A stretch of DNA of 64,000 nucleotides from Minisyncoccota bacterium. GTDB taxonomy: Bacteria; Patescibacteriota; Minisyncoccia; Phycocordibacterales; UBA9973. Position numbers and translations under genes: made by a program. Position 1 is the stretch's first letter. Every line of letters starts with the position of its first letter. The stretch is taken from positions 4,350-68,349 of the forward strand of contig JBAYHJ010000004.1 in the NCBI GenBank assembly GCA_041666225.1, in the 5' to 3' direction. Shown here one piece after another: positions 1,831-64,000 of this stretch. The notes below the pieces were generated by a model. It was not told where the DNA came from and did no database searches. It worked only from the letters and a program-made list of their open reading frames with translations.

Positions 1831-2211
1831 TTATGTTTTACTTTCTTTTCGGCGACCAGATGCCATTGTTTTTCTAACGTTACCTCTGACAGTCCTAGAA
1901 TTAGTCTTTGTTCTTTGACCATTAACTGGTAACCTACGCATATGCCTCACTCCTCGATATGCTTTAATATCTTTTAATCTTTTTATATTGGAAGCAATCT
2001 CACGTTTCAGAGTTCCCTCAATAGACATGGTCTCTATTATTTTACGGATTGCATTTTCTTCTTCAGTGGTTAAAGTATCTGCTTTAATATCAGGATTTAT
2101 ATTCACCTCTTTCAATATAGATTTTGCACGTGGGATACCAATACCATAAAGACTAGTAAGTCCTATATATAGATGCTTGTTGTTTGGAATAGTTATACCG
2201 AGAATTCTCAT
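1831..2211 (-). CDS. rpsM: 30S ribosomal protein S13
   Basis: 126 aa beginning MRILGITIPNNKHLYIGLTSLYGIG.., typical of S13. Confidence 0.9.
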   Translation of the reverse strand: MRILGITIPNNKHLYIGLTSLYGIGIPRAKSILKEVNINPDIKADTLTTEEENAIRKIIETMSIEGTLKREIASNIKRLKDIKAYRGVRHMRRLPVNGQRTKTNSRTVRGNVRKTMASGRRKESKT

Positions 2212-2217
2212 ATAAAA

Positions 2218-2328
2218 TTATTGTTTTTGTTTATGTTTAGGATTATCACAAATGACACGAAGATGACCACTTCGTTTGATTAATTTACATTTTGTACAAA
2301 TTTTTTTTACTGCAGATTTAATTTTCAT
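2218..2328 (-). CDS. rpmJ: 50S ribosomal protein L36
   Basis: Manual translation of the reverse strand gives [36 protein letters not shown]. It is below the ORF-track size cutoff. The Zn-ribbon CxxC..C..H pattern and its position after S13 support the call. Confidence 0.85.
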
Positions 2329-2432
2329 TTTTCGTTTAAATGCTAAAGAAAAATATAGGGCTTTTACCCTGTATTTTTACCATATAAGCACATACTATTC
2401 TATAATACACTACTTTAATAAAATAAGCAAGG

Positions 2433-2648
2433 CTAACCTCTTTTTATGATCCTTCCCTTGCCACCATAAGGATCAAGTAGAACCTCTACCTTATCTCCAA
2501 CTAATACTTTGATTCTATGCATTCGCATTTTACCAGCAAGATAGGAGAGGATTATTTTTCCATCCCCAACATCTACTCGAAAAAGTGTATTAGGAAGCGC
2601 TTCCGTAACAATCCCCATCACTGTATTTTTATCATCTTTTTGATTCAT
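2433..2648 (-). CDS. infA: translation initiation factor IF-1
   Basis: 71 aa S1-like fold with ..GIVTEALPNTLFRVDVGDGKIILSYLAGKMRMHRIKVLVGDKVEVLLDPY...GRI.. Confidence 0.85.
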   Translation of the reverse strand: MNQKDDKNTVMGIVTEALPNTLFRVDVGDGKIILSYLAGKMRMHRIKVLVGDKVEVLLDPYGGKGRIIKRG

Positions 2649-2692
2649 TAATGCTTTGTAAATATAACAAATAAATAATTTTTAGTCAACAT

Positions 2693-4054
2693 TTATTGTA
2701 TAACAATATTTATTTTATTTGTATTTCTGGGTAAGTGTTTTTTCCAAGGTGGAAATACGCTCACTATTGCCGATGAAATTCCTGGGTCTTGTCTAAAAAT
2801 TGATAGTACATCAGCCTTATTAATTCCTACTAATTTTGATTTAAGCATTTCTATATCTGGATTCCAGATCGCTTTTATATCTCCTGTAAGAGAAAAAGGT
2901 ATTGATTCTAATTCTTTGGTAATTAACTGCTCCTTATCTGAAAAATTAAAAATTAAATTATTTAAATCTACTATATTTACTTCTTTTAATTCACCTTTAG
3001 ATATATTTGCTAATGAATTTTTTATAATACTATCAATTAAACTTTTCTCGTTTAATAAAACTACAGACAACTCTCCATCTATTTTAACTGTAGCTTCTGG
3101 GGTTTTAGATATTGTGTTCTCATCAATCTTATAAAAATACGACATGGCTAAAGGATATAAAATATAACCAGAAGGAACTTGAGATTTAACTTTATCCAAT
3201 AATTTATTTTTAAAAGAATTTTGAGCTACATTATCAATATTTTCTTTATCTTTATCACCAACTGAATATACTAAACCTTGAGCTCCTCCTATAAGTGGAC
3301 TTTTCAATTTCCCATAAATTTTATTATATTTAGAAGTTCCCTTAAACGCATTCACATGAAAATCTGTTGGTTCTCCATTATATTCTTCTCCCGGAAGAAA
3401 AGATATTAGATTTACCTCTATTTGACCAGGAGTAATTTTCTTGTCTATAATTTTGTAACCTGGAATAATTATCGTCGAATCTGTTTTATAAACTTTTCCC
3501 TCTTCATCAGAGATAAATGAACCTATTGTTATTTTTTGAGATGTAGTACTAAATTCATTGTATAAAATAATACTTCCATGAGCTTTTATTGATACATCTT
3601 TTGGTTCAGTTAATGTTAAATTTTTCAAAAAATTATCTGAAACTATCATTATTTCAAAATCTACTCCATTATTATTTAAAACCTTAGAAGCAGTAAACAA
3701 TTTATGATCATAATTTATGTTTTGTTTTTTAGAAGTGATAGTAACTATAGCCTTGTGAAAATAATTACCACCCCAATAAATTGCTCCCACTAATAATGAA
3801 AAAATCAAAAATGATACCAATGGCCTACTAAAAAGTCTGGATTTTCTAGCCACCTGAGGAGTTCTTGGTAGTTTTGTGGTATGAGAAGTTCTGCTATTTA
3901 TATAGGTTTCAACATCAATTTCTTTTTTTTTGACCTCTTCTCTATATAAATTACTATTAACATTGGAATCAAAATAATGACTCATATTTTCTTGTGGTTT
4001 AATTATTTTTTTATCTTTATTAAGTTTTATATCCTCCAAGATAATTCTAGTCAT
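2693..4054 (-). CDS. hypothetical bitopic membrane protein with a large extracytoplasmic domain
   Basis: 453 aa. An about 80-aa cytoplasmic N-terminus is followed by a single TM helix (LVSFLIFSLLVGAIYWGG) and a long beta-rich C-terminal region. Its start overlaps the upstream actin-like ATPase gene by coupling. Confidence 0.5.
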   Translation of the reverse strand: MTRIILEDIKLNKDKKIIKPQENMSHYFDSNVNSNLYREEVKKKEIDVETYINSRTSHTTKLPRTPQVARKSRLFSRPLVSFLIFSLLVGAIYWGGNYFHKAIVTITSKKQNINYDHKLFTASKVLNNNGVDFEIMIVSDNFLKNLTLTEPKDVSIKAHGSIILYNEFSTTSQKITIGSFISDEEGKVYKTDSTIIIPGYKIIDKKITPGQIEVNLISFLPGEEYNGEPTDFHVNAFKGTSKYNKIYGKLKSPLIGGAQGLVYSVGDKDKENIDNVAQNSFKNKLLDKVKSQVPSGYILYPLAMSYFYKIDENTISKTPEATVKIDGELSVVLLNEKSLIDSIIKNSLANISKGELKEVNIVDLNNLIFNFSDKEQLITKELESIPFSLTGDIKAIWNPDIEMLKSKLVGINKADVLSIFRQDPGISSAIVSVFPPWKKHLPRNTNKINIVIQ

Positions 4055-4055
4055 G

Positions 4056-5243
4056 TTATTTATCCTTTTTTCTCATTATTGAAATAGCCTCTACCATTAA
4101 AAATGGGTCACATTCTCCATTTTTAACATCACACATATTTAAAAATTCAGGTCCATCTAATGTTACAATAATACTTTTATGCACAGAGACTGTAGGTTTT
4201 ATATAATCCTCACTTTGTAAAACATTTACAAACCAACCTTTCATATCATTGTCTGTTGTTAAAAATATTGTATTAGGAAGAATAAGTGTTCTTGGTAACG
4301 TACTTATACATTGTTTAAAAGCTTCACCCCAAGAATTTTCGATTGATTTTAAAAGTGGTTCAATTTTTTTCTTAAATGCATCGGATAAATTATTCTCACT
4401 ATAAAGTTTAAAAAGCTCTTTTGCATCACGTAACTCAATTTCTAATTTGGTACACATATAATCGAAGAAGGTTTTCTTTCCAAAAGGAAAAGAAAGAACC
4501 GACTTTAATATTCCCTTTGTTACTATTCCTACATCGGTTATTTCTCCGCTAATATCGAGCAATAAATATGAATCTTGTGTTAAATATTTATCTCTTATAG
4601 CTAGATATGTAGATAAAGTAAATGTAGAAAAACTAACTTTTGTATGATGAAAAGTTTTCGATAATGTTTCCTTAATCTTATCTAGACACAATTTAGGAGC
4701 AAGAGATATAACCATATCCATTTCCAAAGATTGACACTTTTTACCGACAGGGTCTTCTATCGCATATCCATTCAAAGATACAGACATTGTATTTTTCTCA
4801 ATAATTTCAGGAGCACCTTCTAGAGTCCCGTATTTTGTCTTATACAATTGAGTAAGATTCGTTATTTCTTTTTCAATTAATTCACTAGCTAAATGTTTTG
4901 TAAAAGTAAAAGGTTTTTCTTTGTTTAGTATGATAGATCTAGTCTCTGATAAATACCACGGTGAAGCGAGGACACAGACAATTTCATCTGGGGCTCCAAT
5001 TTTTTTATCATACAAAGAAGTCACTGTTTCTCTCAAAGCAGAAATCATATCTTTTGTAAAAAAATTAAAATCAAAATCTTTGTGAAATTTTACGTCTGTT
5101 CTTACTGATTTTAATATTACTGGTATCTCTTTATTATCCATAGGAACACGAACGATAGCTCCTCCAACACTTCCAGATCCAATATCAAAAATCGCAATAA
5201 AACTTTCTTTTTTTTGTGTAAATAAAAATCCCATAGTATTCAC
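4056..5243 (-). CDS. actin-fold (ASKHA) ATPase, PilM/FtsA-like
   Basis: 395 aa. A phosphate-1-like N-terminus (IAIFDIGSGSVGGAIV) and a phosphate-2-like motif (LLLDISGEITDVGIV) are present. A bona fide ftsA is annotated elsewhere at 26741, so this is a paralogous actin-like protein. Confidence 0.5.
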   Translation of the reverse strand: MNTMGFLFTQKKESFIAIFDIGSGSVGGAIVRVPMDNKEIPVILKSVRTDVKFHKDFDFNFFTKDMISALRETVTSLYDKKIGAPDEIVCVLASPWYLSETRSIILNKEKPFTFTKHLASELIEKEITNLTQLYKTKYGTLEGAPEIIEKNTMSVSLNGYAIEDPVGKKCQSLEMDMVISLAPKLCLDKIKETLSKTFHHTKVSFSTFTLSTYLAIRDKYLTQDSYLLLDISGEITDVGIVTKGILKSVLSFPFGKKTFFDYMCTKLEIELRDAKELFKLYSENNLSDAFKKKIEPLLKSIENSWGEAFKQCISTLPRTLILPNTIFLTTDNDMKGWFVNVLQSEDYIKPTVSVHKSIIVTLDGPEFLNMCDVKNGECDPFLMVEAISIMRKKDK

Positions 5244-5289: not shown

Positions 5290-7113
5290 TTATTCAAGTG
5301 TTGCTTTTATTCTACGTATTCCAGAGGCAACGGCTTCTTCTTTCTGTATTTTGAAATGACCTAATTCTCCTGTTTTAGATACATGAGGACCGCCACAGAA
5401 TTCTTTTGAAATAGCATTATCATCTTCATCTTCTATAAAATAAACTGATACAATATCTGGATACTTAGCCCCAAATTCCATTTGAGCTCCAATCTTTTCT
5501 GCAACTTCTAGTGGCATTTCTTTTCTAACTACATTTAAATTTCTTTTTATCTTATCATTTACCCAATTTTCAGTTTTTATTTTTTCCTCATCAGTAAGTT
5601 TATGATCACAAATAAAATCTATTCGTAGTCGTTCTTCGGTTATATTACTTCCCCTTTGTTTTATATCATGACCAACAACTTCTTGTAAGGCTGCTAAAAG
5701 TAAATGGTGAGCAGTATGAAGTTTAATAGTTTTTTCACTATGATTTGCCAGTCCACCTTTAAACATACCAGCCGATGAAGTTCTTGACTGATTCTGGTGT
5801 AATTTTAGTTTTTTATTAAAATCTTCTAAATCAATAATCCTACCAATTTCTTTAGCCATTTCAATAGTAAGTTCAATGGGAAAACCATAAGATGTAAATA
5901 AAATAAATGGATCTTGTTCTTTTTTGAATTCTTTCATTCCAAGCTCTAAGGTATGTCTAAATTTTATTTCTTCATTGTTTATTTCTTCAAGTATTTTATT
6001 TGAATTTAATTCAAGATCACTATAAAAAGTTTTATATTTTGAAACTACAACTTCTGCAATTAGTTTTAGGGTATTTTTCTCAAATCCTAATTTATCAGCA
6101 AATCTTACCGCACGTCTAACTAATCTACGTAAAACATATCCCCTGTCTGAATTAGAAGGAATAACTCCATCGTTAATCATAAAAACACTAGCCCTCATAT
6201 GATCAGCGACAATTCTCATTTCTTTTCTTGTTTCAACCCAACAACTTTTCCCCGCCTTTATGTATTCTCCATCCTTTTTTTCTCCATAAGAAAGACCTGA
6301 CAACTCTTCTATTTTTTTTATTATATCCTCAAACAAATCAGTATCATAAGCGGTTTGTTTTTTTTGCATGATGGCTGTCATTCTATCAACCCCTGCCCCC
6401 GTATCAACATTTCTTTGTTTTAATTTACCTATAACTATTCCATCTTTTTTTTCATATTCCATAAAAACATCATTCCAGATTTCTATCAAATCTTCAGTTC
6501 GAACTGCATTCAAAAACTCATCTTTAGATAAATCTCCAACCTTATTATCTGTCATATCATAAAACATCTCACTGCAAGGACCACAAGGACCATTCTCTCC
6601 TGGACTCCACCAATTATCATCAGCTTCTAAAAAGTAAATTCTATTTTCAGGTATTCCTAAACTTTTCCAAACTTCAAAAGATTCTATATCCTTGGGTGCA
6701 TTTTTATCACCTTCAAAACAAGTCACATAAAGTAACTTTGGATTAAGTCCCAACCCTTCTTTTTTCGAAGTCAAAAATTCATAACTCCAAGTTATTGCTT
6801 CTTTTTTAAAATAATCACCCAGTGACCAATTACCCATCATTTCAAAAAATGAAAAATGCCTATTATCTCCAATACTATCTAAATCACCAGTTCTTACGCA
6901 TTTTTGTATATTAGCAATTCTCTTTCCCATGGTGTGTTCTTGTCCCAAAAGATAAGGTACCAATGGTTGCATTCCTGCTGTATTAAAAAGCACAGAGGGA
7001 TCATTGTCTGGTAAAAGTGAGGCAGAATGGATTATTTTATGACCTCTTTTCTCAAAAAATTTTAAAAACCGATTTCTTATTTCGCTTGAGTGCATCTTTG
7101 CATAATACAACAA
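5290..7113 (-). CDS. alaS: alanyl-tRNA synthetase, short 607-aa form without an apparent C-terminal C-Ala domain
   Basis: The N-terminus ..FLKFFEKRGHKIIHSASLLPDNDPSVLFNTAGMQP.. is the AlaRS class II core. The editing-domain HxxxH (HTAHHLL) and CGGPHV motifs are present. Confidence 0.85.
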   Translation of the reverse strand: MLYYAKMHSSEIRNRFLKFFEKRGHKIIHSASLLPDNDPSVLFNTAGMQPLVPYLLGQEHTMGKRIANIQKCVRTGDLDSIGDNRHFSFFEMMGNWSLGDYFKKEAITWSYEFLTSKKEGLGLNPKLLYVTCFEGDKNAPKDIESFEVWKSLGIPENRIYFLEADDNWWSPGENGPCGPCSEMFYDMTDNKVGDLSKDEFLNAVRTEDLIEIWNDVFMEYEKKDGIVIGKLKQRNVDTGAGVDRMTAIMQKKQTAYDTDLFEDIIKKIEELSGLSYGEKKDGEYIKAGKSCWVETRKEMRIVADHMRASVFMINDGVIPSNSDRGYVLRRLVRRAVRFADKLGFEKNTLKLIAEVVVSKYKTFYSDLELNSNKILEEINNEEIKFRHTLELGMKEFKKEQDPFILFTSYGFPIELTIEMAKEIGRIIDLEDFNKKLKLHQNQSRTSSAGMFKGGLANHSEKTIKLHTAHHLLLAALQEVVGHDIKQRGSNITEERLRIDFICDHKLTDEEKIKTENWVNDKIKRNLNVVRKEMPLEVAEKIGAQMEFGAKYPDIVSVYFIEDEDDNAISKEFCGGPHVSKTGELGHFKIQKEEAVASGIRRIKATLE

Positions 7114-32967: not shown

Positions 32968-32987
32968 AGATTTAATTCACTAAAATC

Positions 32988-33072
32988 TGTGACCCTTTGT
33001 AGTTCAAATTGGAATCAGACTGTTGAAAATATAAGGGGATTTAGTAAATTAACAATGGAAACTAATTAATAT
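32988..33072. repeat. about 85-nt repeat A (tgtgaccctttgtagttcaaattggaatcagac...ataagggg...aactaattaata) with a degenerate tRNA-Glu 3'-end-like 5' part
   Basis: Near-identical to repeat C at 34234 and partially to repeat B at 33775. It begins with the same tgtgaccct as the tRNA-Glu 3' end (35555). Confidence 0.6.
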
Positions 33073-33073
33073 A

Positions 33074-33628
33074 TTATTTATCTTTCTGAAAATTAATCAT
33101 ATCTGTGTTAGAAAATATTCTAGACACTGAAGATTCTTTTATCATTCCAAGAGAAGGATTCATTCCAAATCCTATGTATTCAATTTTTTTATTTTTATAT
33201 TTAATAACATATTTAATTGCTGGAATAAGATCAGTATCTGAACTAATTACGATTGCTGTATCATATAAATTATCTACAGCCCCTATTACTAAATCTACTG
33301 ATAATTTTACATCTACCCCCTTCTCTCTTATTTTACCATCATCATACATGATCTTACCTGGTTTTACACCAAAACCTTCTGCTCTTAAACTTTCCAAAAA
33401 CTTCTGTTGACTTTTCACCATTTTTTCACCTTTTTCTGTATTATCTACATCTCTGACTATTCCAACATAATATCTTTTTGAGAATAACTTTCTATCTCCA
33501 ACTAAATGATCAATAAAATTAGAGTAATTTACTCTTTTTGATTGTTGCGGTATTCCTATGCTTTTTAAGCTTCTATATAGATTGCCTCCATCTATGTATA
33601 TTGCAACTGTTTCTATTTTATTATTCAT
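33074..33628 (-). CDS. NYN-domain (LabA-like, PIN-like) protein
   Basis: ..VAIYIDGGNLYRS.. and ..IVISSDTDLIPAI.., the hallmark NYN/LabA motifs. Confidence 0.65.
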   Translation of the reverse strand: MNNKIETVAIYIDGGNLYRSLKSIGIPQQSKRVNYSNFIDHLVGDRKLFSKRYYVGIVRDVDNTEKGEKMVKSQQKFLESLRAEGFGVKPGKIMYDDGKIREKGVDVKLSVDLVIGAVDNLYDTAIVISSDTDLIPAIKYVIKYKNKKIEYIGFGMNPSLGMIKESSVSRIFSNTDMINFQKDK

Positions 33629-33704: not shown

Positions 33705-33774
33705 ACTCGCATTATATACTAATATAGTAAATTGATCAATATGACTGTGGATAACTATAATTTAATCCATATTG

Positions 33775-33818
33775 AATAAAATTGGAATCAAATTATAGAA
33801 AATATAAGGGTATTTACT
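33775..33818. repeat. partial repeat B (attggaatcaaattatagaaaatataagggtattta), related to the 3' half of repeats A and C
   Basis: Sequence similarity to 33011-33050 and 34254-34290. Confidence 0.5.
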
Positions 33819-34121: not shown

Positions 34122-34233
34122 CCAATAATGATACTCACAAAAAATAAACCCTGCGAAAGCGGGGTTTAAATTTGCTCTAAATTATATTTTAGAATCAAAA
34201 CAAACCTTATTATATAAGGATATAAATTACGCT

Positions 34234-34302
34234 GTGACCCTTTGTAGTTCAAATTGGAATCAGATTATAGATAATATAAGGGTATTTAAGGAACTAATTA
34301 AT
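34234..34302. repeat. repeat C, a copy of repeat A
   Basis: tgtgaccctttgtagttcaaattggaatcagattatagataatataagggtatttaaggaactaattaata. It lies at the 3' end of gene 34298..34666. Confidence 0.6.
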
Positions 34303-59492: not shown

Positions 59493-59673
59493 ATGATTTT
59501 TCCCGCCTGCTCCCGAGTACACGAGGGCAGGCAGATTGATTATTTTTTTACTTGAAACTTCGACGTGGTTCATGTGTCTTTACACAATCTCAGTATAGCA
59601 CACTATTTTAAATATACTTAGAAAACTATTTCTCGACCGATCTTGCTCAAAATTGGGACTAATATTCAAATAG

Positions 59674-60483
59674 TTATTTTATCAAGAAATATAGAATTAT
59701 TATTATCCCAAGTATTATTCGATAATAACCAAAAATCTTAAAATTATGTTTCTGAACAAAATTAATTAAGAATTTTACTATAATGAGCGCTACAAAAAAA
59801 GAGACAATAAAACCAATCATTAAAACAACTAACTGTTCGAAATTAAGTACTCCTTTGTATTTTAATAGACTATATGCCGAAGCAGCAAACATTGTTGGAA
59901 TAGCTAAAAAGAAAGAAAACTCCGTGGCAACTGCTCTGGAAGCTCCTAAAATCATACCTCCCATTATTGTTCCAGCTGATCTTGAAACTCCAGGGATCAT
60001 AGATAGACATTGAATTAATCCAACAAAAAATGCGGTTTTATAACTCAAGTCACCGATCGAAATAATTTTAGCTATTTTATTTTTATTTTCAATTAAAATA
60101 ATAATCAAACCACCAACAAGTAGAGATATTGCTACTACCCACGGATTAAATAATTTTTCTTCAATAAAACTAGCAAATATGGCCCCAAGTAATATTGCCG
60201 GTATCACCCCAACTATAGTCTTGTACCAAATATTTAAAGTTTCTTTATTTTTTATTTTATCTTTTGTAAAAGGCCATAGTTTTTTGATAAAATAAACTAA
60301 AACAGCCAAGATGGCTCCGAGTTGAATAACTATATCAAACAACACTGTAAAATCTTCACTAAAAGATAAAAATTGATTCACAAGGATAAGATGCCCAGTA
60401 GAGGAAATTGGTAAAAATTCTGTAAATCCTTCCACTACCCCTAAGATTATCGCTTTAATTATTTCCCAGATATGTAATTCCAT
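59674..60483 (-). CDS. uppP: undecaprenyl-diphosphatase
   Basis: ..GVVEGFTEFLPISSTGHLIL.., the BacA signature. Confidence 0.85.
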   Translation of the reverse strand: MELHIWEIIKAIILGVVEGFTEFLPISSTGHLILVNQFLSFSEDFTVLFDIVIQLGAILAVLVYFIKKLWPFTKDKIKNKETLNIWYKTIVGVIPAILLGAIFASFIEEKLFNPWVVAISLLVGGLIIILIENKNKIAKIISIGDLSYKTAFFVGLIQCLSMIPGVSRSAGTIMGGMILGASRAVATEFSFFLAIPTMFAASAYSLLKYKGVLNFEQLVVLMIGFIVSFFVALIIVKFLINFVQKHNFKIFGYYRIILGIIIILYFLIK

Positions 60484-60579
60484 AAATTTATTTTATCATA
60501 GGTTCGAACTTATACTAAACATATTTACACAAAGGGAAGAAAAGCTCGTTTTAGTGAATGAACTAAATCGAAAAAAGAA

Positions 60580-60795
60580 TTAAGATCTATCGTTTAAATA
60601 TTTACTAGCGATACTCAAAGCAAATGAAGGCAATATAATAAAAACCGTTGCAAACAAGAGTTTCATCAATATCTGTGTTGTTTTTGAGTCTGGCATATCT
60701 GGCCCAGAGGCTGTAATAACAATCAAAATACCAATAATTCCAAAAACAATTGACGAGTAAATAAAAACTTTTGTGGCTATTTTTTGCATAATCAT
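60580..60795 (-). CDS. small two-TM membrane protein (hypothetical)
   Basis: 71 aa. It is bracketed by the two halves of the repeat family seen at 61905 and 62688. Confidence 0.35.
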   Translation of the reverse strand: MIMQKIATKVFIYSSIVFGIIGILIVITASGPDMPDSKTTQILMKLLFATVFIILPSFALSIASKYLNDRS

Positions 60796-60933
60796 ATTAT
60801 ATCACAGTTCGTAACCTCTATATAAAGCTCACAAAATACATATGAGTTTGACAGTCTCCAAACTTGGGACGATGTTCAAATGGAAATATTAAAAGATATA
60901 AAAAAATATATCGTAAGTGTTGTAATATTGTCG

Positions 60934-61806
60934 CTAAACTCCTATCTTCCAAATTCCTTTTTCAAAAAATGCTTCAATGGTTTGACGAGTTGCCTTGTTG
61001 ATAAGATTTGAATGTGATATTTTATTCTTTTTTGCATATTCAACTAACGGAATAATCTTTTTACCATCTAGATATGCTAAACGTTTGTGATAACTATTTG
61101 TAAGTGATCTAGCAACAATTTCTTCCATTATTTTAGTCTTACCCTTCTCATCAAATTCCTTAAATGCATCATAGTATTTTTTGCGATCAATAAATTTAAT
61201 GTTAATTGGTACAAATCCTTCTCTAATAAGAAGATAATTATTTAATACTCTTCCAATACGTCCATTCCCATCACAAAATGGGTGTGTGTATTCAAAAACC
61301 AAATGAAGTTTCGCTATACGTTGTATAATATTTTCATGACCACTTGCATTATATTCATTTATCATTTTCTCGAGTCGATCAATTACTTCTTCTGGCTTAG
61401 GGGCAATGTGACTTCCAACTCTGACATATTCACCTGTTTTTCTAAATCTTCCAGCAATATCATCTCGAATATTTGAAATAAGCATTTTATGAAGAGATAA
61501 AATTACACCAAGGTTTAATTCTTGTTCCTTAGCTCTTTTATCAAGATAAGATACAACTCTCGCAAGATTTTTTGCTTCAAAAATTTCACGCTCACTAATA
61601 AATCTATCAAGATCAATCTGTAAAAGTATTTTTTCTGTTTCTTCTAAAGTAAGTGTGCTGTTTTCAATTGCATTCGAATTATAAACTTGCTCAGCAACTT
61701 CTGCTTCACTAATAAGTTTTATAAGTGAATCCTTACCCATAGAAGCTTTATAATAACGCTCTCTCAATAAATTTATTTTATTATATACACTTAATACTTT
61801 TACCAT
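60934..61806 (-). CDS. Fic family protein (AMPylase-type fold)
   Basis: ..HPFCDGNGRIGR.., the canonical Fic HPFx[DE]GNGR motif. Confidence 0.75.
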   Translation of the reverse strand: MVKVLSVYNKINLLRERYYKASMGKDSLIKLISEAEVAEQVYNSNAIENSTLTLEETEKILLQIDLDRFISEREIFEAKNLARVVSYLDKRAKEQELNLGVILSLHKMLISNIRDDIAGRFRKTGEYVRVGSHIAPKPEEVIDRLEKMINEYNASGHENIIQRIAKLHLVFEYTHPFCDGNGRIGRVLNNYLLIREGFVPINIKFIDRKKYYDAFKEFDEKGKTKIMEEIVARSLTNSYHKRLAYLDGKKIIPLVEYAKKNKISHSNLINKATRQTIEAFFEKGIWKIGV

Positions 61807-61904
61807 ATGTTAATATTATAGTCTTTTTCACGATTTTAGCAAGAAAACCGTGAAAATAGTTAATTTTTTAATGTTTTTCACGTTTTTGACTATAATTATC
61901 ATTT

Positions 61905-62095
61905 TAGGTTCGAACTTCTACTAGCCTCCGAAAAACAACCATTGTAAAATATGGTTTAAAATTTTGCTCCGAACTTGGGATGATGCTCCCGTTTTATTAG
62001 ATTGTAACCAATCTGTTTAAAACGCAGGTCCATCGATAATGATGGACACCTGTAGACGGTCCTTTAGGGTTCGAATGAGTATATTAGGTAATTAA
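61905..62095. repeat. about 190-nt intergenic repeat element, copy 1
   Basis: Shared blocks with 62688..62860: taggttcgaact..tacta; ccgaaaaa.aaccatt.taaaatatggttt; gaacttgggatgatg; ttcgaatgagtat.tt.tagg. Confidence 0.55.
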
Positions 62096-62118
62096 CATCA
62101 TGTGATATAATAAAAATT

Positions 62119-62598
62119 ATGAAAACCAATGTCTATATAGATGGAAATAATTTATATCGTTCCGCCCAAGAACTAGGTTTTAATATTGATTATAAAAAGT
62201 TTAGAGGTTGGCTCAGACAAAAATATAACGCAAATAATATCTATTTATTTATTGGACTTGTACCTGATAGGGTAAAGTTCTATGAATATCTACAAAGTTG
62301 TGGTTATATTTTAGTTTTTAAACAAACCGTTTCTGTTGGAGAAAAAATTAAAGGCAATTGTGACGCAGAACTTGTTTTAAAAACTGTTTCAGATTTTTAT
62401 ACTAAATCATTTGATAAATGTATCCTAGTTACAGGAGATGGAGACTTCGGGTGCCTTGTAGAATTTCTAAAAGAAAATAATTCCATAAACAAAGTTTTAT
62501 CTCCAGATGTAAATAAATGTTCATTTTTATTGAGAAATAAAAATGTAGAAATTACATTCTTAAACAATCTTTATCATAAATTCTCAAACAAGATATAA
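62119..62598 (+). CDS. NYN-domain (LabA-like) protein, second paralog
   Basis: ..NVYIDGNNLYRSA.. and ..ILVTGDGDFGCLV.. are NYN/LabA motifs. Confidence 0.65.
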   Translation: MKTNVYIDGNNLYRSAQELGFNIDYKKFRGWLRQKYNANNIYLFIGLVPDRVKFYEYLQSCGYILVFKQTVSVGEKIKGNCDAELVLKTVSDFYTKSFDKCILVTGDGDFGCLVEFLKENNSINKVLSPDVNKCSFLLRNKNVEITFLNNLYHKFSNKI

Positions 62599-62687
62599 AG
62601 AAAAAGCCCCCGATGTAGACGAATCTACATAGGGGTCTCTTTCATAATGATATCAGTATTATATCGCAAACGATATCATAAAGTCAA

Positions 62688-62860
62688 TAGGTTCGAACTA
62701 ATACTAACCCCTGCCAGCCCTCCTATAGTCGGGAGCAGGCTGGTCCGAAAAATAACCATTATAAAATATGGTTTTAAAAAGTGCTCCCTGCCCGAAATGC
62801 TACGTATATCGTTGCAGGCGGGCGAACTTGGGATGATGTTCGAATGAGTATTATAGGAAA
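62688..62860. repeat. about 170-nt intergenic repeat element, copy 2
   Basis: The same conserved blocks as copy 1 appear in the same order and orientation. Confidence 0.55.
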
Positions 62861-62969
62861 ATAATAAAGACCCACAAACACTTTCATATAATGTGGGTCT
62901 TTTACTCCTGCTAAACGAGCCTGTTTTTTGTTACCAAAAATTGAGTTGTTTATTGAAATTACATTAAAC

Positions 62970-63728
62970 TCATACTGAAAATAATTTCAGAGATTTTTGA
63001 ACGTAATCTATGGCTATTTGCACATCCAGTTCGTCTTCTATTGTACGAAGTCTTCCCTCTGCATCGATACAAAGTTCGGGGAAATCTTTTACCAATGGTT
63101 CAACCAAATTCAGTGTTGTCGGACTCAATCCCCCTGCTACACCCAGACCGAAGTTATTTCTTTTAGCACCTAATGCTTCCAAATAATTCTTCGCAATTAT
63201 AGGGTCAAATGGTTTTCCTGTACCATCGCTTGGGTCAAGTAAGACATAATCAATGAGGTCGGCATATTCACGATGTACCTTATCAGCCAGTTTTTGAGGC
63301 GAATGAGACACTTCATTAAAAGCGTCACCGCCAATTTGAAGTACAATACATTTTTTTTCGTAAAATTTTTTGTATGCTTCCAGTACCCTTACTGAAGGCC
63401 AGGCAATATTAAGCTGGAATCCATTAAAGTTTTCTCCTGAGTAGTCAGTTACTTCTAGCAACTGTGACAAAAGATTTTCAGGCTCTTTGGTGTTAAAGTG
63501 AACCAAATTCAGACAATTTTCATTGTCGAGAAAAATATTCTCCATTTCACTTATCGATGGATAACGACCAGGCCACTTGTTCGTAATTCCCTTCAAGCTT
63601 TTTGAGCTTGCCAAAACGCCAACCATCAACAATCGATTTGCCTTTTGAAAATTAATGCCCTTCAGAGTATCTGATACTTCTTCGGGAGACATAAACCCTG
63701 TAATACCAATGTATGGTTTCTTTTTCAT
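62970..63728 (-). CDS. phosphoribosylanthranilate isomerase-like (TrpF-family TIM barrel) protein
   Basis: ..DYVLLDPSDGTGKPFD.. and ..GLGVAGGLSP.. resemble TrpF D(x)LLD..GGTG..FDW and LAGGL.P.N blocks. No other trp genes are nearby. Confidence 0.4.
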   Translation of the reverse strand: MKKKPYIGITGFMSPEEVSDTLKGINFQKANRLLMVGVLASSKSLKGITNKWPGRYPSISEMENIFLDNENCLNLVHFNTKEPENLLSQLLEVTDYSGENFNGFQLNIAWPSVRVLEAYKKFYEKKCIVLQIGGDAFNEVSHSPQKLADKVHREYADLIDYVLLDPSDGTGKPFDPIIAKNYLEALGAKRNNFGLGVAGGLSPTTLNLVEPLVKDFPELCIDAEGRLRTIEDELDVQIAIDYVQKSLKLFSV

Positions 63729-63837
63729 GGTGCTATTTTTTTAGTAATGAATGTTTTTTCTTTAGATTAATCTTAAATGGATACATTGTCAAACAAAAAC
63801 AAAAAAGACCTAAACATTTTGAATAGGTCTTAGTCTT

Positions 63838-64000
63838 CTGGAAACGAATCAACTTCTTTAATGATGACATCTTCCAATAATTCTTTTTGGTAAGGACCAT
63901 ACTTTGCTTTTCCAACAACTTTTTTACCGTTCAAAATTAGTAGAAAATATTCTTTATCAGCAGGCATCATCTTATCATAAGGTAGATTATCTTTATCAAA
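63838..64000 (-). CDS. C-terminal fragment of a gene running off the window end (hypothetical)
   Basis: The reverse translation ..FDKDNLPYDKMMPADKEYFLLILNGKKVVGKAKYGPYQKELLEDVIIKEVDSFPED* ends at a stop at 63838. Confidence 0.3.

Follow-up and report, generated by a model that had tools for sequence, protein, structure and literature searches.

The repeats analyzed here bracket small genes in a 64,000-nucleotide (nt) stretch of a Minisyncoccota genome (contig JBAYHJ010000004.1, positions 4,350 to 68,349; hereafter the window), and the element that they represent recalls several described systems. Large serine integrases, such as those of phiC31, Bxb1, A118/LI and TP901-1, recombine attP with attB only, and integration destroys attB. 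Like the attachment (att) sites of these enzymes, the element has a short common core (GGAGC) between otherwise dissimilar arms, occurs in four junction combinations, and is met by a gene for a protein with Resolvase, Recombinase and zinc-ribbon domains, which lies at the element end beside the site. Unlike them, its site sits within a conserved unit of ~100 bp that also contains a terminator and a distal box, and it forms tandem arrays of tiny integrase-less cassettes, which are unexpected from attP x attB recombination. With integrons and clusters of attC sites lacking integron integrases (CALIN) it shares co-oriented arrays of cassettes of 1-2 genes and 0.4-2.5 kb each at one fixed insertion point, a 60-140-bp site after each cassette that is homogeneous within the family, the existence of arrays without a recombinase, and a cargo rich in toxin-antitoxin genes and small accessory enzymes. 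It differs from integrons in lacking IntI, the attC core motifs and the single-hairpin fold, in having a serine recombinase as its candidate enzyme, in cassettes that are oriented either way, each with its own promoter and terminator, and in being anchored at tRNA-Asn. As in tRNA-linked islands and the cis-mobilizable elements (CIMEs) related to ICESt1/ICESt3, insertion is at a tRNA 3' end, the inserts are set apart by tRNA-end-related direct repeats, and integrase-less att-flanked units occur beside integrase-bearing elements; however, the units here are single genes and not multi-kb islands, and the element, instead of copying the tRNA end, is a distinct conserved site plus terminator, found in many genera. 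Repetitive extragenic palindromic sequences and bacterial interspersed mosaic elements (REP/BIME) are likewise short, hairpin-containing gene-end repeats with terminator-like activity, but the element is strictly local and co-oriented and is accompanied by no REP-associated tyrosine transposase (RAYT). The element most resembles, in function, both integron cassette arrays and the tandem accretion with CIMEs at tRNA genes, and, in mechanism, the att sites of large serine integrases.

We consider it probable that the repeats are att-type elements bounding the cassettes of an array that grew by serine-integrase-driven insertion at the 3' end of tRNA-Asn, a hotspot in many Paceibacteria of the Candidate Phyla Radiation (CPR). 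A mobile or recombinogenic cassette family had been proposed in the first-pass annotation of the window, and this proposal is supported by co-oriented arrays of single-gene or few-gene cassettes in many genomes, by identical cargo beside different neighbors with homology breaks at the core, and by large serine recombinase genes that adjoin the site. Full-text literature searches on integrons or serine recombinases in Patescibacteria returned no description of the element. CPR genomes are tiny, and little is known of how they acquire genes. If our interpretation is correct, the conserved and widespread tRNA-Asn array would be a definite place where accessory genes come and go, with toxin-antitoxin pairs and Fic, NYN, NUDIX and small-kinase genes among its cargo; the conserved arm of the element would be an easily searchable marker for the mobilome of uncultured Paceibacteria; and the integrases would form a tRNA-targeting serine family with compact sites, and hence potential genome-engineering tools.

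Loci were fetched around NYN homologues and around matches to the conserved arm ("hp1", see below) and labelled L001 onwards, L041 and L042 being the window's own contig. R1 is a covariance model of the element, and its family counts are given at E<=1e-4. The minimal, insertion-free element is ~100 nt long (e.g., L005 4663-4766; minimal copies are present in L004, L005 and L009), and the length of 33 aligned full copies is nearly constant, at 101-105 nt. Read on the window's minus strand, which is the tRNA sense, it starts with a tail and TTCGAAC-ATCnTCCCAr-GTTCGGAGC (hp1, ~35 bp and almost invariant), continues with an A-rich linker and an intrinsic terminator hairpin with its T-run, and finishes with an end box, CTACCTTnGTAGAAGTTCGAACC, also written GTAGAAGTTCGAACC. 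Nearly every end box leads, within 2-15 nt, into an extended -10 (TGnTATAAT) and the start codon of the next minus-strand gene. Such -10 boxes stand 6-8 nt ahead of the start codons of BacA (60483), the 71-aa ORF (60795), NYN (62119) and most other cassette genes, which implies leaderless mRNAs. hp1 is near-invariant over more than 200 copies, and the conservation reaches into the tail. In 146 distinct sequences aligned to the model, all 6 pairs of the terminator hairpin show compensatory changes (169 cells, a value reached by 0 of 500 shuffles), whereas 0 of 7 pairs of the hp1 inverted repeat changed on both sides. An unbiased nhmmer set agrees: Y/Y changes opposite G are present in hp1, but mismatching variants (A.C, G.A) are about equally common. 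The conserved part thus behaves as a DNA site recognized by protein, and only the terminator as a nucleic-acid structure. The terminator assignment rests on this covariation, a simple terminator scan having scored only about 2-fold above shuffled AT-rich sequence. Beyond the window the family is widespread: the hp1 pattern matches at least 120 metagenome stretches, and arrays are found in many genomes. The same pattern had 0 matches in viral contigs, and a phage origin of the element was rejected on this ground. R1 matched 171 times in 100 sources, with at most 5-6 matches per locus, spaced 0.4-2.5 kb apart. Within loci the R1 copies are co-oriented, with a single weak exception. L004, L005, L009, L014, L017 and other loci carry many copies each, all on the NYN-sense strand, and the nhmmer matches are all co-oriented once L041 and L042, reverse-oriented duplicates of the contig of the window, are left out. 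The family spans many genera. Its cargo is diverse and includes Fic, NUDIX, YafQ/RelB, HEPN/nucleotidyltransferase, glyoxalase, RibD_C, acetyltransferase, small-kinase, LD-carboxypeptidase, peptide deformylase, OmdA and TspO genes.

Two copies of the repeat, with ordered blocks in common and the NYN gene (62119-62598) between them in direct orientation, had been noted at 61905-62095 and 62688-62860/62, and both the coordinates and the blocks were found again (Table 1). The sequence TAGGTTCGAACTnnTACTA was counted 3 times over the 64 kb, versus 0.11 expected, and AACTTGGGAYGATG has 3 exact matches, none of them outside the array region; the other blocks common to copies 1 and 2 are the hairpin AACCATTrTAAAATATGGTT and GTTCGAATGAGTAT. 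The two copies differ in length through G+C-rich hairpins inserted at different sites (61986-62068 in copy 1; 62708-62743 and 62788-62822 in copy 2), the last of which interrupts the sequence between GTTCG and GGAGC. Copy 1 scores 74.6 bits against R1 (E=3e-12, at 61907-62006) and is 80-88% identical to copies in L004, L005 and L009. Copy 2 reaches 36 bits (E=4e-4, at 62742-62862), a score lowered by its insertions. A third instance had been described as split, with its two ends around the gene for a 71-amino acid (aa) membrane protein. The pieces are real; they are better read as a separate, degenerate copy (3a), which lies wholly between the Fic gene and the 71-aa open reading frame (ORF), and an isolated end box (3b, 60498-60518), and only a small residual likelihood is left to element ends enclosing cargo in the 60498-60898 region. 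In copy 3a, hp1 reads UUUGAAC-AUCGUCCCAA-GUUUGGA (60880-60857) and is followed by a weak terminator, and the end box GGTTACGAAC (60816-60807) is directly upstream of the extended -10 (60806-60796) and ATG (60795) of the 71-aa ORF. Copy 3b is preceded by the terminator hairpin of that ORF and followed by the extended -10 (TGATAAAAT) and leaderless ATG (60483) of BacA. The sequence AGTTCGAACC has only 3 exact occurrences in the window, every one inside the array. The 3' block had also been likened to repeats A and C around the other NYN paralog (33074-33628, 23% identical), but this likeness extends to about 12 of 14 bases. Those repeats (CTGTGACCCTTTGTAGTTCAAATTGGAATCAGA...AATATAAGGG, at 32985-33045, 33770-33815 and 34230-34290) form a different family of ~60 nt, which flanks that gene and a small membrane-protein ORF and gives R1 just 20 bits (E about 1). 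The idea that one repeat family bounds both NYN paralogs was therefore not supported.

Table 1. Features of the cassette array and its flanks (positions in the window or, past its end, window-equivalent positions)
Feature	Position	Strand	Basis and details
Distal array flank: BacA (undecaprenyl-diphosphatase)	59674..60483	-	Pfam BacA 1.4e-83; csp and a DEAD-box helicase come next, and these look like housekeeping genes
Copy 3b, lone end box TTAGTATAAGTTCGAACCTAT, without hp1	60498..60518	-	Sequence, repeat families
Cargo: 71-aa predicted membrane protein with own extended -10 and terminator	60580..60795	-	ORF list; gene call in source records; no Pfam match
Copy 3a, degenerate full-length copy	60806..60898	-	R1 46.5 bits, E=2.4e-6; sequence
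Cargo: Fic/DOC-family gene	60934..61806	-	Pfam Fic 6e-21; homologues are cargo in 7 loci, with the opposite gene orientation in L005
Copy 1, attR-type boundary repeat (putative)	61905..62095	-	Sequence, repeat families, R1. Order on the minus strand: tail and hp1 5' arm 62095-62069; 83-nt two-hairpin insertion 62068-61986; hp1 loop, 3' arm and GGAGC core 61985-61966; terminator hairpin 61956-61937; end box CTAGTAGAAGTTCGAACC 61924-61907
Cargo: NYN module	62119..62687	+	NYN gene 62119-62598 (+), Pfam NYN 4.6e-17; conserved bidirectional hairpin 62606-62637; conserved minus-strand promoter (-35 TTGACT 62687-62682, -10 TATAAT 62663-62658; 11 of 12 matches in a promoter scan)
Copy 2, attR-type boundary repeat (putative)	62688..62862	-	Sequence, repeat families D1-D3 and D7, R1. 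Order on the minus strand (tRNA-Asn sense): tail and hp1 arm/loop 62862-62823; G+C-rich insertion 62822-62788; GGAGC core 62787-62783; terminator hairpin 62773-62754, then U-run; second G+C-rich insertion 62743-62708; end box TTAGTATTAGTTCGAACC 62707-62690
Cargo nearest the tRNA	62970..64000	-	252-aa ORF 62970-63728; NUDIX gene from 63830 onward, past window end
Fourth copy, fused to the tRNA-Asn 3' end	64400-64464, past window end		nhmmer and R1 matches, L041 9224-9329
tRNA-Asn(GTT)	64458-64531	-	Contig L041

By motif counts and R1, the window holds no copies outside the array, and all copies known in the 84 kb of its contig lie within 4 kb of tRNA-Asn. Given the insertions in copies 1 and 2, one of them within the core, and the degenerate state of copy 3a, the array in the window probably is an old one that has become fixed. 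A non-autonomous transposable element of the miniature inverted-repeat (MITE), REP or BIME type, inserted between genes, would also be short, repeated, intergenic and hairpin-bearing, and the 7-nt inverted-repeat ends TTCGAAC...GTTCGAA, predicted to form a closing stem, would suit it. We regard this origin as very improbable, given that the copies are local and not dispersed, are all co-oriented, and belong to a family conserved over many genera, unlike species-specific REPs. Moreover, conservation passes the putative terminal repeat into the tail, neither a target-site duplication nor a long terminal inverted repeat was seen, and no transposase or RAYT-like gene recurs in the loci.

The inserted G+C-rich hairpins stand out in this AT-rich genome. 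One of them is 94% identical to two sites in L001 (4743-4778 and 5443-5478), and a second shows 85% complementarity to a hairpin (59502-59534) that precedes the cold-shock gene. They may belong to a small mobile hairpin family; as a repeat family they were set aside, only one recurring elsewhere (L001). L001 also contains a variant boundary repeat, TAGCTTTCTAGATGGTCGAATATCTAGTAG plus a terminator (2862-2890, 3736-3765, 4720-4745 and 5420-5445), around NYN, HEPN/nucleotidyltransferase and DUF4258/DUF2283 cassettes, which may represent a sister family.

The contig of the window (ENA ERZ27249449 k141_537215, 84 kb; L041) extends beyond the window and there reaches a tRNA-Asn gene, directly 3' of which stand the linker, terminator and box of the element. 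The tRNA takes the place of hp1, and CGGAGC ends both. The same arrangement, with linker, terminator and box directly 3' of tRNA-Asn, was found in L120, L121, L139 and L117. Other features recur at this tRNA. A small GIY-YIG nuclease gene lies immediately 5' of tRNA-Asn in several loci (L123 1853-2092, L017 9561-9806, L016 9502-9876, L007 and L115). A second motif, GCTCCGTG-[hairpin]-GTGGTAGGGAGCGAAAAGC-[hairpin], comes after the terminators of tRNA-Asn or hp1 in L006 (downstream of tRNA-Asn), L045, L056, L158, L145, L151 and L128, and looks like a tRNA-Asn 3' end that is inverted and has a hairpin inserted. In L050 (1-112), the 5' portion of tRNA-Asn is tandemly duplicated together with about 40 nt upstream (CCGCCAGCTGGCGGAGGAAAAGC...TCCCTGGTAGCTT, twice). 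Among the at least 120 hp1-selected loci listed, 14 of the 17 tRNAs are tRNA-Asn, and in every checked case the tRNA lies upstream of the hp1 copies and is co-oriented with them, the copies keeping the direction of the tRNA regardless of the orientation of the cargo genes. The supposed tie between the repeat and NYN genes was not supported, NYN being present in only 2-3 of 120 repeat-picked loci listed. NYN as the enzyme or partner of the element was also rejected: it is missing from 117-118 of these 120 loci, and the loci fetched show no other recurrent neighbor of NYN. The 159-aa NYN protein is 80-97% identical over more than 100 clusters, from metagenome-assembled genomes (MAGs) of different CPR classes and even a Cytophagales and a Nitrosarchaeum MAG. 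Its module also stands directly 3' of tRNA-Asp, tRNA-Glu and tRNA-Trp genes (loci L003, L019, L024, L031 and L037), which suggests that it is mobile cargo in its own right. In the NYN loci (L001-L040) every homologue is followed by the conserved hairpin, which covaries, and then by the minus-strand promoter, so that an antisense RNA of about 60 nt overlapping the NYN 3' end is predicted. Homology in about 39 loci covers 62100-62687 and ends exactly at the -35 box, as in a self-contained module that may be toxin/antisense-RNA-like. hp1 resembles the tRNA-Asn 3' end (TTCGA..CCCA..CGGAGC) and has UCCG...CGGA-G-C in common with its acceptor end, with the TTCGA motif displaced outward from the core by 5 nt in hp1 relative to the tRNA. 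An offset of this kind recalls that between the half-sites of attP and attB. The 3' end of a tRNA gene is the usual target of tyrosine integrases and is unusual for serine integrases, and in this respect the element differs from the att sites of the latter.

ORFs from ~157 loci were clustered, and 20 recurrent families (of the top ~26) were annotated. The most recurrent family after NYN is a large serine recombinase (Resolvase, Recombinase and Zn_ribbon), found in 13 loci. The 3' end of the integrase gene converges on and overlaps the GGAGC core, and three divergent integrase subfamilies terminate exactly there. The abutted core is that of tRNA-Asn in L010, L123, L036 and L052 (tRNA/integrase junction) and that of hp1 in L088, L142 and L080 (hp1/integrase junction); the tRNA/flank junction is seen in L041, L120, L121 and L139, and the hp1/flank junction in the window copies and in L123 (11860-11961). 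In these four junction types the arms are homologous per side and the switch point is inside GGAGC, as for attB, attL, attP and attR. In L036 (13545-13918) and L052 (1390-1830), the tRNA-Asn gene beside the integrase has a group I intron (Rfam RF00028, 50-63 bits) in its anticodon loop, and these tRNAs were missed by ARAGORN. L142 and L080 (hp1) and L036 (tRNA) have the integrase-side sequence in common up to GGAGC and differ to the left of it, and the tRNA/flank and hp1/flank junctions have the terminator and box side in common. Imperfect dyad symmetry was noted by inspection around the core of the hp1/integrase sites of L088 and L142 (TCCCAAGT..ACTATGGGA in L088). L123 contains a complete integrated element, with tRNA-Asn at 2083-2157, the integrase at 2143-3612 (minus strand), a total of ~9.7 kb, and hp1, terminator and box at its far end. 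The contig of the window matches the left flanks of L123 and L132 (glutamate dehydrogenase, GDH; a 219-aa gene; tRNA-Asn) at 76-79% identity, and to the right of the tRNA the three are all unrelated to each other.

The same cargo, namely the NYN module and RelB/YafQ, is found beside different neighbors, with homology breaking at the core of the element. The NYN unit is homologous in L004 and L005 as far as the core, L010 and L070 break there too, and the element together with the RelB/YafQ cassette is common to L123 and L004. A crossover at the TTCGAAC common to hp1 and the end box was discarded, since 0 hybrid GAAG-TTCGAAC-ATCnTCCC sequences were present among 705 TTCGAAC sites. Co-oriented, mostly single-gene cassettes that include toxin-antitoxin, glyoxalase, acetyltransferase and NUDIX genes, separated by ~100-bp sites with ends ...AAC and GTT..., are also what a classical integron or CALIN would offer, with attC sites recombined by the IntI tyrosine recombinase. 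Such an origin is hardly credible here. No tyrosine recombinase was found among the 20 annotated recurrent families (~157 loci) or in the gene tables, rare single occurrences not being exhaustively excluded; the TTCGAAC/GTTCGAA ends misfit RYYYAAC/GTTRRRY; the folds are multi-branched, with no single imperfect hairpin and with a terminal helix that does not covary; the cassettes have their own promoters; and the anchor is a tRNA gene and not attI/intI.

In the serine-integrase interpretation that we favor, hp1 would provide the P arm of attP, with attB formed by the tRNA end and its terminator flank. The copies in the window would then be attR-type junctions (hp1/flank) that arose one after another as the NUDIX/252-aa, NYN, Fic and 71-aa units inserted, and would later have partially decayed through hairpin insertions. 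The terminator may end the transcripts of the tRNA and of the preceding cassette, and in this way restore or insulate transcription after each insertion. Several observations weigh against this scheme. No recombinase gene is present in the 84 kb around the array of the window, and the same is true of most small-cassette arrays. Standard serine-integrase logic regenerates no attB, so that the tandem integrase-less cassettes are left unexplained. On inspection, no dyad symmetry was seen between the tRNA arm (B) and the downstream flank (B'), and the conserved end box, at 55-60 bp from the core, falls beyond the span of a normal serine-integrase site. Searches for alleles of the same strain with the site empty or occupied returned none, exact look-ups of the 252-aa and BacA proteins giving the same arrangement only. 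In L005 and L096, cargo homology begins just past the end box, a hint of a second junction. Finally, copies 1 and 2, being broken by insertions, may be inert relics.

A rather unlikely alternative is that the elements are intergenic punctuation, each a terminator with a promoter-proximal box that insulates accessory genes transcribed on their own. They would spread and be shuffled by duplication and by homologous recombination between the ~100-bp repeats following DNA uptake, with no recombinase of their own, and the integrases nearby would simply share the tRNA hotspot. The covarying terminator, the promoter and start codon close behind nearly every end box, the terminators that upstream genes often have themselves, the lack of an integrase in the window's contig, and the 80-95% identity of whole elements between metagenomes, sufficient for homologous exchange, all fit this view. 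It leaves unexplained the near-invariance of hp1 without covariation, the interchange of hp1 with the tRNA-Asn 3' end, the ending of three divergent integrase subfamilies exactly at GGAGC, and the strict co-orientation of the copies with the tRNA.

A shared regulatory RNA element had been the other proposal of the first-pass annotation. That the element encodes a structured small RNA or cis-regulatory RNA, for example with hp1 as a mimic of the tRNA-Asn acceptor stem that has its own -10 box and terminator and acts on NYN, Fic or tRNA metabolism, we hold to be improbable. In favor of it, both window copies fold better than shuffled sequence does (z -2.7 and -3.1), the Y/Y changes opposite G in the hp1 stem give wobble pairs on the minus strand only, a TATAAT-like motif precedes hp1 at a fixed 5-8 nt, a terminator comes after it, and hp1 has sequence in common with the tRNA-Asn acceptor end. 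Against it, Rfam models matched only tRNAs in the window at the gathering threshold and nothing relevant at E<=10 over 60300-63000, the hp1 helix shows no compensatory change, and RNAalifold gave no consensus fold. Moreover, hp1 is located within integrase coding sequence in L088, is split by large insertions in the window copies, and has a '-10' whose most conserved base is not among the usual key positions. A tRNA fragment or mini-tRNA gene was also rejected: hp1 does not thread onto a T-arm, and real tRNA-Asn genes and hp1 differ in the spacing of the '-10' upstream. An argument for one strand from G.U pairs lost weight when the unbiased set showed mismatches at similar frequency and no compensatory change.

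Two candidate routes could supply the serial integrase-less cassettes. In one, a trans-acting integrase would use sites at which attB is regenerated; in the other, the ~100-bp repeats would allow homologous exchange. The first would approach an integron-like capture system in Paceibacteria, with the tRNA-Asn 3' end and terminator as the fixed site and a trans-acting large serine recombinase that adds and removes single-gene cassettes with their own promoters, a proposal that we put forward only tentatively and hold to be rather doubtful. Each ~100-bp site (hp1, terminator and end box) would in that case re-create the tRNA end, the terminator and a fresh insertion site. If true, it would amount to an independent invention of serial cassette capture, with a serine instead of a tyrosine recombinase.

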